Shown in pieces: positions 4,707 through 11,298 of a stretch of 64,000 nt of DNA (its first letter is position 1; each line of letters opens with the position of its first letter). The stretch spans positions 29,388 through 93,387 of the forward strand of contig CAZJCK010000002.1 in assembly GCA_964544635.1 (NCBI GenBank). The letters run 5' to 3'. The notes under the pieces were generated by a model. The model worked only from the letters and a program-made list of their open reading frames with translations, was not told where the DNA came from and ran no database searches. The stretch is from an uncultured Ignavibacteriales bacterium. GTDB taxonomy: Bacteria; Zixibacteria; MSB-5A5; GN15; FEB-12. Position numbers and translations under genes: made by a program.

Positions 4707-5663
4707 TCACCCTTCCAGCTCAAGAATGTCGGAAAATGTCGCCCCTCGCACCTGATACGCGCGATCCGCCCCCGGTGCTGGAGCATAGTCAATATATAAG
4801 CTCTGGATCAAAGTTATCGATGATTCACCCGCATCGTGTACTGCCTCGACCGGAAAAAGTTTGCTCTGGGCCGGATCGAGATGCACCAATTCGGGGATGG
4901 TCGAGGTGTCGGCGGGGCGCACCACCGGAACAAACCGCCATTCCAGCGGCAATGCGGTCACACCAGGTTCCTCCGGTTCGACCGAGGCAATCTGAATCCC
5001 GGCCTGACCGGTCTCATCCTGCGGCAGGCGGCGTGGATCGCGGAGCACCAGCGGCTCGCTGCCCACGTTTTTGAGCACCAGCGAAAACCGGTTCGACGCT
5101 GCCTCGCTCTGGTCCAGCAGTGTCACTGACAGTGCTGCCGTCGGCTGCTCTTCAAGTTCGGCCGCAAAACCGAACAGGCCATCCACCAGTGCCGACGCCT
5201 GCGCCATCAACTCGCCGTCAATCGGTGAAAATTTCCGAGTAAGACTATCCTCTTCCCCTTCGATCGTCACCGTAATAACAGCATGCCCGGGGGTGACACC
5301 CTTCAGTTCGCGCAGATCGGCAAAGCCGACCTGTTCGAACAGTGCCACCAGCGAGTCGCACTGCTCGCCCTTCAGCTGCGACCGGAACAGTCCGATCGGC
5401 CGGCCTGGTTCGTCGGACGGCGGTCTCAGTACTTCCCAGCTTGCCGTGTTACCGGCGCAATCGACGTGTAGTTCAAGATAGTGCTTGGGAGTATCCGGGC
5501 CGTAAGCCGGACCGGATGATGACACCATCCGGATAGCGTTAACTTGTCCAATCCCTGCAAGATTCATATCTGGCGTACCTTTGCATGATGTTTCCCCGGC
5601 CCCGACCAGTGCGACCACAACCAGTCCCGCCGCGAGATGTCGCACCCCGGCAATTCTTGACAT
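4707..5663 (-). CDS. Signal-peptide protein of unknown family; candidate periplasmic immunity protein for the adjacent metalloprotease, or a T6SS-associated envelope protein
   Basis: ATG at 5663 with an AAAGGA SD. The N-terminus MSRIAGVRHLAAGLVVVALVGAGETSC is a hydrophobic signal sequence. I recognised no catalytic motif. It lies immediately 3' of the HExxH gene. Confidence 0.55.
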   Translation of the reverse strand: MSRIAGVRHLAAGLVVVALVGAGETSCKGTPDMNLAGIGQVNAIRMVSSSGPAYGPDTPKHYLELHVDCAGNTASWEVLRPPSDEPGRPIGLFRSQLKGEQCDSLVALFEQVGFADLRELKGVTPGHAVITVTIEGEEDSLTRKFSPIDGELMAQASALVDGLFGFAAELEEQPTAALSVTLLDQSEAASNRFSLVLKNVGSEPLVLRDPRRLPQDETGQAGIQIASVEPEEPGVTALPLEWRFVPVVRPADTSTIPELVHLDPAQSKLFPVEAVHDAGESSITLIQSLYIDYAPAPGADRAYQVRGATFSDILELEG

Positions 5664-5688
5664 ATGCCCATATCCTTTCTTTCCCGGT

Positions 5689-6960
5689 TCATGCACCGCC
5701 TCCCGGTGGCTGGCGGCGCGATCGCGCTCGGTAGCGGTAATCTAAACCGGTCTGGTCTTTTACCATTTGCGCAAGATGACGGCAGATCGTGCGGAAGTGG
5801 CGCCACTTCACATGGGTCAGGTTTTGCCCCATGATCGAGTCGGCATCAATACCGTTCACCGCCCCATCACCATTAAGACTGGCATCGATGGCCGCCCCGG
5901 CGTACTCATCGGGGTTGCCGAGATGATGCCCGAACTCATGGGCAGCCACGGCCAGTCGGGGTTCGGCCAAAAACCAGAGCGAATCGTTGGAACGAATGTT
6001 ACCTGGCGCAACGATGAGCGTGCCGGCCGAAAGGGCGTTTTTCTTTTCGAAACTGACATCGAATTCCGTCTGGTAGCGGCAGCACCAGTCGGCGCCCGAC
6101 TGACAGCCCCGTCGCTTGATATCGAACTTGTTGTTCCAAGTGGTGATGATGTTGTCACGCCATTGGGTAATGCGGCGGCGGTTGGGGGGGCTGTCGATAT
6201 TCCAGTCGGCAAACCGTTCCGGCCAGGTGCCGCCATACTGACAGGTGTAATTGTTTCCCTGCTTGTAGAAGCCGACACAAAAGTTGTTGCCGTCATGCAG
6301 GACGAATCTGCGCGGCAGGTTAACCCAGGCGTTGCCGTTCCAGTACTTGTTGCGTCCTCGAACCTGTTTCATCCACCAGTATGGCCCGCCCTGGACATTG
6401 AAGGCGGCAACAGCACCGGCGTTGCCCTGCGGCGCGCTGGCACCGAGATTGACTACCGACGCTCCCCATCCCTTGAGGTATTTGATATTGCTGCTGATCT
6501 TTACCGTCCGATCGTTGGTCGCGACATCGAAGTGCGAGCGGCTCTCATCGAAATGTGCCGACGCCAGGTCGGGCATCCGGCGCAACTGGAGCAGGTTCGA
6601 TGAGGCAGCAGCCTCGGCTACCAGGTCGGTATGTACTTTGAAGCGAATGTTGCCGTCGAGCTTGTCATCGGCCGCCCCGCGGGCATTCCAGATCGTATAG
6701 AGTCGTCCGCCGATGACGGCTGCCGGAATTTCGTCGAACTTGGTCTCGCTGCCGTCATCAGAAACAAAACAGACATCAATGCGAGCCGGTGTGATGGGCG
6801 GATGGCCACTGATGACGACCTCGATGGCGACCGCTTCACCGCAGCGCACGGTCGGCCGCAGCCACTGCGCCCGGCGCACCCGATAGTTGGCACGGCGGAA
6901 CAGCCACCGCACCCCGGTCGCGACTTTTCCTATTGTCCTCGCACCAGCACCGTTGCTCAT
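5689..6960 (-). CDS. Zinc metalloprotease-like protein (metzincin/snapalysin-type motif HEFGHHLGNPDEY); candidate T6SS effector
   Basis: 423 aa. AAHEFGHHLGNPDEY matches HExxHxxGxxD, and a possible Met-turn (ADSIMGQN) follows about 25 residues later. The central region is rich in Trp, Asn and Cys, and the N-terminus resembles a beta-sandwich. Its start overlaps the stop of the upstream gene (ATGA at 6957-6960). Confidence 0.65.
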   Translation of the reverse strand: MSNGAGARTIGKVATGVRWLFRRANYRVRRAQWLRPTVRCGEAVAIEVVISGHPPITPARIDVCFVSDDGSETKFDEIPAAVIGGRLYTIWNARGAADDKLDGNIRFKVHTDLVAEAAASSNLLQLRRMPDLASAHFDESRSHFDVATNDRTVKISSNIKYLKGWGASVVNLGASAPQGNAGAVAAFNVQGGPYWWMKQVRGRNKYWNGNAWVNLPRRFVLHDGNNFCVGFYKQGNNYTCQYGGTWPERFADWNIDSPPNRRRITQWRDNIITTWNNKFDIKRRGCQSGADWCCRYQTEFDVSFEKKNALSAGTLIVAPGNIRSNDSLWFLAEPRLAVAAHEFGHHLGNPDEYAGAAIDASLNGDGAVNGIDADSIMGQNLTHVKWRHFRTICRHLAQMVKDQTGLDYRYRARSRRQPPGGGA

Positions 6961-9716: not shown

Positions 9717-10135
9717 CGCTCCGCCCTGGACCAGCCGCGGTCGTCAATCTGCTGCGATATTGACTCGCCGCTTTCGGGGTCCTCTTCCGGTCCGGCCCCC
9801 GGTTGGTCGGCCGGCTCTTTGCCGAACAGTTCGTACCCGGCGACGCATACCGGTACCTTCTCGACATCAGTGGGCACCGCCGATACCACCACCGCGGCGT
9901 CGAACTCGGGCAATTCCAGCTTGTACTCGCCGATCGGAATCTTGTCGACACTGACCAGACCGTCCTTGTCGGTAGTCGCTTCTATGCGTTCGGTTTGCCT
10001 CACCAGGACAACCTTGGTATCGGCAATCGGGACCGTACCGGAATTGGACAAGAGTAAAACCGAGATGTGCCCGGGCGGGAGAACAAAGAACTCCCGATTT
10101 TTCTGCTTGAGATAGTCTGAACGTGTTCGAGCCAT
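9713..10135 (-). CDS. Small protein with a carboxypeptidase-regulatory/transthyretin-like beta-sandwich and an acidic tail
   Basis: 140 aa. GTVPIADTKVVLVRQTERIEATTDKDGLVSVDKIPIGEYKLEL is the typical CarbopepD_reg/TTR pattern. The C-terminal tail is rich in Pro, Glu and Asp. Confidence 0.5.
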   Translation of the reverse strand: MARTRSDYLKQKNREFFVLPPGHISVLLLSNSGTVPIADTKVVLVRQTERIEATTDKDGLVSVDKIPIGEYKLELPEFDAAVVVSAVPTDVEKVPVCVAGYELFGKEPADQPGAGPEEDPESGESISQQIDDRGWSRAER

Positions 10136-10167
10136 GGTGTTGTCGTCGCCGCTACCGGCGGTATTGA

Positions 10168-11298
10168 TCAGTTTTCAAAGGGTGCACCGTGATCCGGGAA
10201 TTCAACCGCCCACGGTCCCGGTGGAACATTGTCGACCTTCGCCGCCCCGCCGCCGTCAAGCGTACCGCTGCGGACTTCGCCGCTGCACAGGTGCAACCGA
10301 TACGGTGCGTCGGCCAGCTCTTTGCCGTCGGTGTCCTTTAAGCTGAATTCAATGCGGGTGCGGTAGTCGAGCAAGCCCGATTCCCTGCGGGCGCCGCCAA
10401 CCTCGCAGACGAAGAAGTACCGCGGCACGTAATAGTTCGACAGTTTCGGCTCGGCCTCCGACGGTGGAGCGTCGCTCCACGGATACTGCCACTCCACTTC
10501 GATGGCATCGTCTTTCACCTTCGCTTCGATTTCGTCAAAGGGGCGGCGCCGATTGTTGGGGCCTACTTCGTAGATCTTCAGTTTCGCCGGCGTATTGTCT
10601 TCGAAGCCGATCAGTGCAACCTGCAGCTTGACCTTTTCGTCGTCCTTGATGCGATTGGTCGACCAGCGAATGTCGGCGATCCCCGTCAGCTCAATTTTGT
10701 GATCCCCCGACTCCACCATCGTCCGCTCGACTTTGCCGCCGAGCATGCCGCTCCAGCCGGTGTCCTTGGGGCCCTTTACGGTGTAGTTCAGGCCGGCGAT
10801 CGGTTTGCCCCCCTTGTCGACGACGGACACATTGAGAAAGTCGGTCTTCTGCGACTTGTCCTCGGTTTTGCCGGACTTTGCCTTGTCGTCCTTGACCTTG
10901 GTGTCGGCGCCCGCCTTGGTGTCGGCTTTCCCTTCTTTGACTTTCTGGCCACCCTGGCCGGCGCCACCGCCGCCACCCATACCGCCACCGCCGCCGGAGG
11001 TACCGATCATCACCTTGGACGCACCCTTCACAATCACGTCGGGAGGGCCGACGCACACGCACGAGTCGCCCACCGTAGCCGCCGGCAGTCCGGCAATCAG
11101 GACGGTCGGGACACCGGGACCAACGATCGGCCCGCCGACATGCGGGATCGGCGGGACAGCCGGTGTTTGCATCGGACAGGTGTGCATGTCCGTCAGGCGT
11201 GCCGCCGGCAGGCCCTCTATGAGCACGGTAGGGTTACCGACGACTATAACGCCGCCGTGAGCGGTGGTATCTCCCTGTCTGGCTGCCGGTCCGGGCAT
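10168..11298 (-). CDS. PAAR-domain spike-tip protein with Gly/Lys-rich linker and about 230-aa C-terminal beta-sandwich extension
   Basis: The N-terminal roughly 100 aa carry PAAR motifs (GLPAARLTDMHTCP, GLPAATVGDSCVCVG). A linker follows (SGGGGGMGGGGGAGQGGQKVKEGKADTKAGADTKVKDDKAKSGKTEDKSQK), and then beta-rich domains. ATG at 11298 with a GAGG SD. Confidence 0.85.
   Translation of the reverse strand: MPGPAARQGDTTAHGGVIVVGNPTVLIEGLPAARLTDMHTCPMQTPAVPPIPHVGGPIVGPGVPTVLIAGLPAATVGDSCVCVGPPDVIVKGASKVMIGTSGGGGGMGGGGGAGQGGQKVKEGKADTKAGADTKVKDDKAKSGKTEDKSQKTDFLNVSVVDKGGKPIAGLNYTVKGPKDTGWSGMLGGKVERTMVESGDHKIELTGIADIRWSTNRIKDDEKVKLQVALIGFEDNTPAKLKIYEVGPNNRRRPFDEIEAKVKDDAIEVEWQYPWSDAPPSEAEPKLSNYYVPRYFFVCEVGGARRESGLLDYRTRIEFSLKDTDGKELADAPYRLHLCSGEVRSGTLDGGGAAKVDNVPPGPWAVEFPDHGAPFEN

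Follow-up and report, generated by a model that had tools for sequence, protein, structure and literature searches.

A probable pair of carrier-and-cargo units beside the core genes of a Zixibacteria-type type VI secretion system

Which proteins encoded beside the core genes of a type VI secretion system (T6SS) would carry cargo, and which would be the cargo carried? The question is raised by seven closely spaced minus-strand open reading frames (ORFs), here numbered g1 to g7 from the PAAR gene towards clpV, that occupy positions 4707-11298 of a 64,000-nucleotide (nt) stretch of DNA from an uncultured Ignavibacteriales bacterium (CAZJCK010000002.1), the whole of which is called the window below. 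An original prediction had read this block as T6SS cargo with a PAAR gene at its head, lying between a promoter-like site and a split clpV-tssB-tssC-hcp set. This placement is borne out by the ORF list, in which the seven genes stand at the coordinates it had given, and by Pfam matches, with the PAAR domain found at E=3e-23 and the core genes adjacent; its domain calls (PAAR, TTR-like, DUF1795-like and HExxH) were all seen again in profile searches. In our reading, which draws on synteny, variability and shared domains, the block probably comprises two carrier-plus-cargo units, namely the PAAR extension with g2 and g3, and g4 and g5 with g6 and g7, and makes up the end of a subtype-iii-like T6SS operon that is concerned with loading, in a Zixibacteria-type bacterium.

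A conserved scaffold and two variable slots

Related loci were found by a TssC profile scan of species-representative genomes, which returned 73 loci (L009-L081) with TssC identities of 63-76%. Across them, the series ClpV(N)-ClpV(C)-TssB-TssC is always present at fixed spacing and with 60-80% identity, the order of the core genes is identical in 60+ loci, and g4 and g5 are missing from almost none of the loci whose upstream flank is long enough. The resulting layout is PAAR, slot 1, Eag-like g4, g5, slot 2 and ClpV, where slot 1 of the window is filled by g2 and g3 and slot 2 by g6 and g7. What fills the slots changes from locus to locus: the g2+g3 pair recurs only in L019, L027 and L040 (~50 of the 73 loci having enough flank), g6 relatives are found only in L063 and L078, and g7 is absent from all 73 TssC-anchored loci. 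Depending on the locus, 1.7 to 4.1 kb lie between the PAAR gene and g4, and 250 to ~4800 nt between the end of g5 and clpV. Gene content and order, and what is conserved and what varies, are read directly from these loci, as are the domain homologies, invariant residues and export signal described below.

The slot proteins themselves are diverse, with 91 proteins of at least 100 amino acids (aa) from the 52 loci examined falling into 50 clusters. Large and small slot proteins co-vary as pairs, and in 16 of the 32 slots that hold several genes, the last protein begins with a signal- or lipoprotein-like segment. Pfam matches almost none of them, the exceptions being a Zn phospholipase C, a protein with PG_binding_1 and Amidase_2 domains, and a protein with OmpA and TTR domains. 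The orthologous locus L001 illustrates the pattern: it keeps the same gene order, with core proteins 68-78% identical to those of the window, PAAR, g2, g3 and g5 at 43-44% and g4 at 32%, and has at the g6/g7 position a protein of 397 aa, unrelated to them, and a lipoprotein of 240 aa. Counting L001, unrelated pairs replace g6/g7 there and in about 50 other loci. The claim that all seven genes are variable cargo thus stands for g2, g3, g6 and g7, which are swappable, and falls for g1, g4 and g5, which are fixtures of the lineage; conserved components in place of cargo, which the original prediction had named as a finding that would speak against it, are these three genes only. Slot 1 also holds, in L007 (2-4069) and L064 (2220-6232), a pair made up of a ~915-aa protein with no Pfam match and a ~411-aa PQQ_2/beta-propeller-like protein, which is a further unannotated cargo pair.

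The core genes follow the block on the same minus strand and are identified by Pfam: the N-terminal half of ClpV (3128-4633, 501 aa), the C-terminal half (2034-3128, 364 aa), which overlaps it by 1 nt, TssB (1548-1988) and TssC (106-1533, 4.8e-70). Last comes hcp/tssD, whose ATG lies at position 46 and which runs down to position 1 and off the window's left edge. What had been called a possible hcp start is a real one, given that its first 15 codons read MARRPILEIDGVTYK and TssD of L019 begins MARRPVLEIDGVTYK, with 14 of the 15 residues matching. ClpV looks like a genuine two-gene protein and not the product of a frameshift error, because the split is kept in 61 of 64 related loci; the halves lie in different reading frames in 60, and three loci read through. 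In L019 the operon goes on with TssD, VgrG, TssE, TssF, TssG and TssK, then one 311-aa gene without an assigned family; VgrG, TssE, TssF, TssG and TssK likewise lie downstream in orthologous loci, a part that falls beyond the window here. A search for further sequence to the left, made with the window's own TssC and TssB, gave no record for TssC and, for TssB, only a 1.3-kb contig. TssC matches PF17541 and the L019 TssD matches PF17642 (2.5e-22), both of which we take to be Bacteroidota-type (subtype iii) T6SS families; in that subtype, TssN/O/P/Q/R take the place of TssJLM in the membrane complex.

The 73 loci come from Zixibacteria-type metagenome-assembled genomes (MAGs). Zixibacteria and Ignavibacteriales are each the label of several, and a few are called 'FCB group' or 'bacterium'. 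Either these labels have been given inconsistently or FCB lineages have the system in common. Calditrichota is also among the labels of MAGs carrying highly similar TssC.

The PAAR extension, its free-standing paralogue and an Eag-type chaperone

The spike-tip protein g1 (10168-11298, minus strand, 376 aa) is encoded together with the T6SS core, with ClpV, TssB, TssC and the hcp start all in the window, and its PAAR domain (PF05488) reaches 82.1 bits (E=3.3e-23), where the cut-off is 27. The protein is made up of an unsplit PAAR domain (aa 1-~95), a Gly-rich and Lys-rich linker, and a C-terminal extension in which a beta-sandwich module (206-278), a second linker (287-313) and a TTR-like domain (316-370) follow one another. 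Full-length relatives head seven of the loci (L009, L012, L019, L026, L040, L058 and L064). In prePAAR ('split PAAR') effectors, N-terminal transmembrane helices stand between the motif AARxxDxxxH and the PAAR domain (PMC7773334). The g1 protein opens with AARQGDTTAH, which fits this motif, but passes directly into its PAAR domain, and its hydrophobic windows (from aa 66) lie only inside that domain, so that it is no prePAAR protein; the unsplit arrangement is instead seen in orphan PAAR proteins (PMC7773334).

The extension of g1 has a free-standing counterpart in g5 (6957-7865, minus strand, 302 aa). In g5, two beta-sandwich modules (20-89 and 117-189) come first and a TTR-like domain (239-293) last, with a linker between them, the C-terminus giving a weak prealbumin/TTR-like match. 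Hidden Markov models (HMMs) of the g5-family domains match g1 at 207-274, 287-313 and 316-370, and g5 is 29% identical to g1 residues 207-369. Judged by these alignments, g5 and the C-terminal extension of the PAAR protein are paralogues, the module occurring two times in g5. It has at least 339 homologues, without a Pfam family; among the 120 listed nearly all are ~300 aa long, and the named ones are mostly Zixibacteria entries called 'hypothetical protein'. The gene is always placed directly upstream of slot 2. A comparison of the g5 family profile with residues 145-219 of 8gra_J, the C-terminal extension of the solved Bacteroides fragilis PAAR (8GRA; PMC13402684), gave a weak match that is not significant (E=0.12).

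The third fixture, g4 (7880-8296, minus strand), encodes 138 aa from a TTG start, or 136 aa from an ATG two codons in. The window protein matches DcrB/DUF1795 at 1e-5, with a score of 26.0 just under the cut-off of 27.2, while all 31 family members tested match PF08786 (DUF1795/DcrB; best 1.5e-15). The best solved matches of the family profile in the PDB are EagT6 (6xrf, 1tu1; E=0.003) and then SciW. By these family matches, g4 is an Eag-type chaperone with a DUF1795/DcrB fold, and it is a fixture of the lineage and no private partner of g3. Eag chaperones studied so far bind the N-terminal transmembrane helices of prePAAR effectors (PMC7773334).

It is possible, though on balance doubtful, that g5 and the Eag-like g4 define an undescribed loading route, in which a free-standing copy of the PAAR extension would dock interchangeable cargo on the spike. 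The beta-sandwich module was also tried as a universal N-terminal loading marker and rejected as such: an iterated HMM of the g5/PAAR-extension module recovers g5 (twice), g1, g6, 64 of 80 g6-family proteins and two g3-family members, and matches none of the other slot effectors.

Slot cargo and competing explanations

The two proteins singled out as candidate toxins by the original prediction, of 471 aa (g3) and 423 aa (g6), keep that standing. The description of both as impossible to place holds in one respect, as g3 has no family match, and gives way in others, with a snapalysin-type site in g6 and weak caspase and Tce1 fold matches for g3.

The slot 1 cargo begins with g2 (9713-10135, minus strand, 140 aa), a TTR/prealbumin-like protein with an acidic tail that gives weak SpaA/CarboxypepD_reg matches and a TTR HMM match at aa 36-79. 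It is present only where g3 is, namely in L019, L027 and L040, which agrees with the earlier suggestion that it acts as an accessory of g3, and we propose this role for it. The candidate toxin g3 (8301-9716, minus strand) has no match in Pfam or NCBIfam, nor in PDB sequences, against which it was searched both as a single sequence and as a 47-sequence profile. Six relatives were found by a word-based search and 885 clusters by an exhaustive one. The protein consists of N-terminal beta-sandwiches, a central alpha/beta domain (aa ~150-330) and a C-terminal beta-rich region, its N-terminus resembling the g5-type module weakly (hhalign 75%). Two residues, His219 (codon 9060-9062) and Cys273 (codon 8898-8900), are invariant in 47 and in 67 diverse sequences.

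The AlphaFold2 models of g3 are confident, with predicted local distance difference test scores of 90.4 for the full protein and 92.0 for residues 140-365. In the model, His219 comes just after strand 213-217 and Cys273 just after strand 267-271, which is how the catalytic His and Cys are placed on the central sheet of clan CD cysteine peptidases (caspase/C80 type). The full-length model found no match in the PDB at E<=0.001, and the central domain was then modelled separately. In Foldseek, this domain model gave repeated caspase matches (caspase-8, E=0.021, not significant), and the highest probability (0.90) went to Tce1 (9qpe_G; E=0.043, TM 0.39/0.48). Tce1 is a putative cysteine protease of the P. 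aeruginosa H3-T6SS that resembles the cysteine protease domain (CPD) and has its His and Cys 54 residues apart (PMC13323088), the same spacing as in g3. On the strength of these models, g3 is a candidate His/Cys protease toxin remotely like caspases and CPD-type proteases. In five of nine long relatives (P0207, P0198, P0192, P0191 and P0211), the g3 core domain lies C-terminal to eCIS_core (DUF4157), the position that toxin domains occupy in extracellular contractile injection system (eCIS) proteins (PMC8213781). No gene private to g3 and fit to be its immunity gene was found in the compared loci; g3 may therefore act on non-self targets, such as eukaryotes, or need activation.

A g3-family protein was also observed on a contig that is high in GC content, planctomycete-like and not of a T6SS locus (L004, 8528-12453), with PSD domains nearby. 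There, an OmpA-PG_binding_1-TTR protein with no obvious signal peptide, which ends in the TTR-like domain of g2, precedes a g3 homologue of 598 aa, after which comes a 213-aa protein with an LALASC lipobox. The arrangement suggests a further delivery route for g3-type toxins, and an exported partner for some of them.

The slot 2 cargo consists of g6 (5689-6960, minus strand, 423 aa) and g7 (4707-5696, minus strand). In g6, an N-terminal module (aa 27-99) that matches g5 closely (hhalign 96.5%, E=8e-10) precedes a toxin domain (aa ~140-423) carrying the zinc motif HEFGHHLGNPD (aa 341-351, nt 5908-5940). Across 30 sequences, H341, E342, H345, D351, Y353, M377, C286 and C294 are invariant, as is S375; S375 and M377 belong to the SIMG downstream of the zinc motif, the putative Met-turn. 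The best PDB matches of the g6 profile, and the only solved proteins that match the motif helix, are the snapalysins 1c7k/4hx3 (E=0.027), whose HETGHVLGLPD aligns with the g6 motif; g6 alone against PDB sequences gave only a chance proteasome match. Its scores lie below the cut-offs for Peptidase_M7 (13.4 vs 25), Peptidase_M6 (17.1 vs 22) and the NCBIfam snapalysin model (13.4 vs 300), so that by profile g6 is not an M6 or M7 member and is best treated as part of an unnamed zincin family. This family has at least 80 members, with no Pfam domain over the toxin region, and relatives carry PG_binding_1, OmpA, LysM, TTR-like or PAAR domains ahead of the toxin domain; one relative is fused to PAAR, and one lies ~5 kb from two vgrG genes. 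The g6 protein has an isoelectric point (pI) of 9.6 and eight cysteines.

The partner g7, of 329 aa when read from a GTG, probably starts at the ATG at 5663 (MSRIAG...), which is more likely because AAGGA lies upstream of it. It has the sole N-terminal hydrophobic segment among the seven proteins, ending ...LVGAGETSC, and in L006, L007 and L008 its homologues (26% identity) come immediately after those of g6, the L007 and L008 copies having an AVSC lipobox. The pairing of a metalloprotease with a signal-peptide protein, which had been predicted, is thus upheld. The sets g5-g6-g7 (L006) and g4-g5-g6-g7 (L007) recur as modules; g5 also stands before the pair in L008, and no T6SS core genes were found in the fetched flanks of these three loci. 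From this recurrence and the export signal, g6 and g7 are candidates for a periplasm-acting effector and its exported immunity protein, a module that would travel with its carrier.

Taken together, the proposed mechanism is as follows. In unit 1, the C-terminal extension of g1 would carry the products of the following genes, with g2 as a small TTR-like accessory and g3, with its His219/Cys273 pair, as the toxin. In unit 2, the conserved loaders, g4 as an Eag/DUF1795-type chaperone and g5 as the free-standing paralogue of the PAAR extension, would be followed by swappable cargo, with g6 as a snapalysin-type metzincin and g7 as its exported immunity protein. The g6 toxin would probably act in the target periplasm or cell wall, and its docking might proceed through the N-terminal beta-sandwich module that it shares with g5 and the PAAR extension. 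The binding partners, toxicity, substrates and compartments of action in this scheme are those we infer from the sequences.

How do other explanations compare? If g3 were a toxin and g4 its cytoplasmic immunity protein, the block would hold two classical effector/immunity pairs, and such a g3-g4 pair was part of the original prediction. The placement of g4 directly after g3, with a 4-nt gap, invites this view, as do the same order in L001, L027 and L040 and the DcrB-like gene that again follows a distant g3 homologue, P0006, and leaves some room for a g3-g4 link. Yet g4 is found in nearly all related loci with or without g3, its homologues occur in about 40 loci that lack g3, in L007 it precedes g5-g6-g7 with no g3 nearby, and its uniform DUF1795/DcrB match, with the chaperones EagT6 and SciW as the closest solved proteins, is that of a loader; we therefore drop the predicted pair and consider it quite unlikely. 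A reading of all seven genes as conserved structural or membrane-complex parts, counterparts of TssN-R and not cargo, suits the conservation of g1, g4 and g5 across the lineage, but is extremely improbable: g2, g3, g6 and g7 are missing from most loci, where unrelated genes stand instead, no transmembrane segment is found in g1-g6, and the family domains of g6 and g3 are elsewhere fused to PAAR, peptidoglycan-binding domains or eCIS_core. The locus comparison largely refutes it.

For the two toxins, other functions can also be envisaged. As a processing protease, g3 would release cargo from the PAAR or g5 carriers, as CPD domains do, either in the producer or after delivery. Its fold hints lead to caspase- and CPD-type proteases, which are often processing enzymes (Tce1 has been compared with the CPDs of TcdB and MARTX; PMC13323088), and no immunity gene stands beside it; against this, g3 occurs in only three of ~50 other loci with enough flank, and so is no general maturation factor, its core takes the C-terminal 'toxin' position behind eCIS_core (PMC8213781), and it comes with its own accessory, g2. 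We regard this role as unlikely. The g6 protein, for its part, could degrade eukaryotic or extracellular proteins and leave the bacterial envelope alone, with g7 an unrelated exported protein, given that metzincins of the snapalysin and matrix metalloproteinase type are mostly extracellular proteases of proteins and that its similarity to snapalysin is limited to the active-site helix. This is improbable in view of the g7 homologues that keep their place after g6 homologues in three loci despite 26% identity, the fusions of the family to PG_binding_1, LysM and OmpA domains, the exported lipoprotein partners that are common among slot pairs, and the conserved cysteines and basic pI that fit a periplasmic site.

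The two-unit model thus remains the probable one, and several observations weigh against it. Each of its proposed binding relations derives from gene adjacency and shared domains. The proteins g1-g6 lack the N-terminal transmembrane helices that Eag clients would have: Kyte-Doolittle windows of at least 1.6 are found in none of g2-g6 and in g1 only within the PAAR domain. The beta-sandwich module has no match in the other slot effectors and is therefore not a general loading signal. In four loci (L033, L057, L060 and L068), g5 is followed by clpV after 250-490 nt, leaving slot 2 nearly empty; the cargo genes of these loci may lie at other sites, as happens with the orphan g5-effector-immunity modules of L006 and L007. 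The fold matches of g3 all have Foldseek E-values >0.01 and TM-scores of 0.27-0.48, which are not significant, and the profile search of PDB sequences found nothing for it, while the ...ETSC of g7 is not a canonical lipobox. The DcrB-like gene behind P0006 belongs on this side as well.

Flanking features, known systems and wider meaning

The seven genes are tightly joined. The gap between g1 and g2 is 32 nt, that between g3 and g4 4 nt and that between g4 and g5 14 nt; g2/g3 and g5/g6 share 4-nt ATGA overlaps, and g6/g7 overlap by 8 nt with the GTG start or are 25 nt apart with the ATG start. These coordinates agree with the predicted gaps of 0-32 nt and three shared stop/start junctions. Upstream of the PAAR gene, a gap of 98 nt contains a sigma-70-like promoter candidate (11349-11378, minus strand; TTGACT-18-TATATT), which agrees with the consensus at 10 of 12 positions and is a consensus match only. 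A scan of 8 kb found six such sites where 2.5 were expected, so that this promoter call is weak evidence, a hint. A second promoter-like site (4658-4686, minus strand; TTGACT-17-TACTAT, 9 of 12 positions, again a consensus match only) lies within the 73-nt gap between g7 and clpV, and through it the core genes might be transcribed independently of the cargo genes. RNA-family and DNA-repeat scans of 1-13000 and 4000-12000 gave no Rfam match, and the repeats they found were an internal PAAR repeat and short chance repeats only. There is no step in GC content at the cargo genes, with values of 0.57-0.62 throughout.

Upstream of the block, a nucleotidyl transferase ORF (11397-12302, minus strand) and an NAD-dependent epimerase ORF (12133-13143, minus strand) overlap by ~170 nt as listed. 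The transferase probably starts at an internal Met near MPAPDNDMLTV, because its Pfam match begins at residue 70. Farther away, an ABC ATPase gene and then rpoN, encoding sigma-54 (15536-17818, plus strand), resemble the common lptB-rpoN arrangement and are unrelated to the finding; other bacteria are known to place T6SS genes under sigma-54.

The closest system in layout is the subtype iii T6SS GA3 of B. fragilis, where variable regions hold effector/immunity pairs with cognate PAAR or PAAR-like tips and adaptors (Ate3/Pte3, Pte2-Bte2; PMC13402684). Both systems combine a conserved core with adjoining variable regions, in which effector/immunity pairs and accessory proteins specific to an effector are encoded; unlike GA3, the present system belongs to a Zixibacteria-type host, uses g5 and an Eag-like g4 and not the Bacteroides adaptors, has a split ClpV and carries other effector families. 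The g4 family resembles EagT6-Tse6 and SciW-Rhs1 (PMC7773334) in its PF08786 match and in having genes for a PAAR protein and effectors alongside, while the PAAR here is unsplit, g1-g6 lack N-terminal transmembrane helices, and g4, unlike effector-specific Eag genes, is a lineage-wide fixture next to g5. Tce1 (PA0256) and Tce2, putative CPD-like cysteine-protease effectors of the P. aeruginosa H3-T6SS, have no reported immunity gene (PMC13323088), and Tce1 is the highest-probability fold match of g3, though not a significant one (E=0.043); the two share the His-Cys spacing, the lack of an immunity gene and the standing of T6SS cargo. The g3 protein differs in having no sequence similarity, a larger size (471 aa) and extra beta-rich domains, and whereas Tce1 is loaded inside Hcp3 rings, the g3 gene comes after a PAAR gene and has a TTR-like partner. 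The C-terminal place of the g3 core in its relatives recalls the DUF4157/eCIS_core-toxin fusions (PMC8213781), although no eCIS_core is present in g3, whose gene is part of a T6SS operon.

With snapalysin (MEROPS M7) and the metzincins, g6 shares HExxHxxGxxD and the downstream invariant Met; unlike snapalysin (132 aa), it has a catalytic domain of ~280 aa, conserved cysteines and an N-terminal loading module. A T6SS metallopeptidase effector is also formed by the C-terminal domain of VgrG2b, and as with T6SS toxins that act in the periplasm, the candidate immunity protein of g6 is exported. TTR extensions of PAAR and VgrG proteins are used as effector docks, examples being among the PAAR classes that Shneider et al. 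reportedly set out in 2013 and in VgrG1 of enteroaggregative Escherichia coli, which docks the effector Tle1. Similarly, TTR/prealbumin-like domains end g1 and g5, form g2 and begin some slot effectors, the difference being that here the TTR-bearing extension is also encoded on its own, as the conserved g5, which has a separate cargo slot.

Nothing here is categorically new: PAAR tips and Eag chaperones are established, and so are adaptor-linked cargo and polymorphic effector/immunity slots. What is new are the effector and carrier families, and the loci also offer a large pool of unannotated effectors. T6SS biology comes mostly from Proteobacteria and gut Bacteroidota, and Zixibacteria are an uncultured phylum of sediment and groundwater. 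Our literature search found no paper describing a T6SS in Zixibacteria, and the locus documents a conserved one. Its two-slot layout serves as a built-in effector finder, almost no cluster of slot proteins having a Pfam match. If the loading route through g5 and g4 is true, each of the g5 homologues, of which at least 339 are known, would have a T6SS effector encoded immediately downstream, opening up dozens of effector families without annotation, and the route would include an Eag chaperone without transmembrane clients. The findings could thereby widen ideas of how cargo is loaded, with a paralogue of the PAAR extension as carrier, an Eag-type chaperone that serves without a transmembrane client, and a toxin domain common to T6SS and eCIS cargo.

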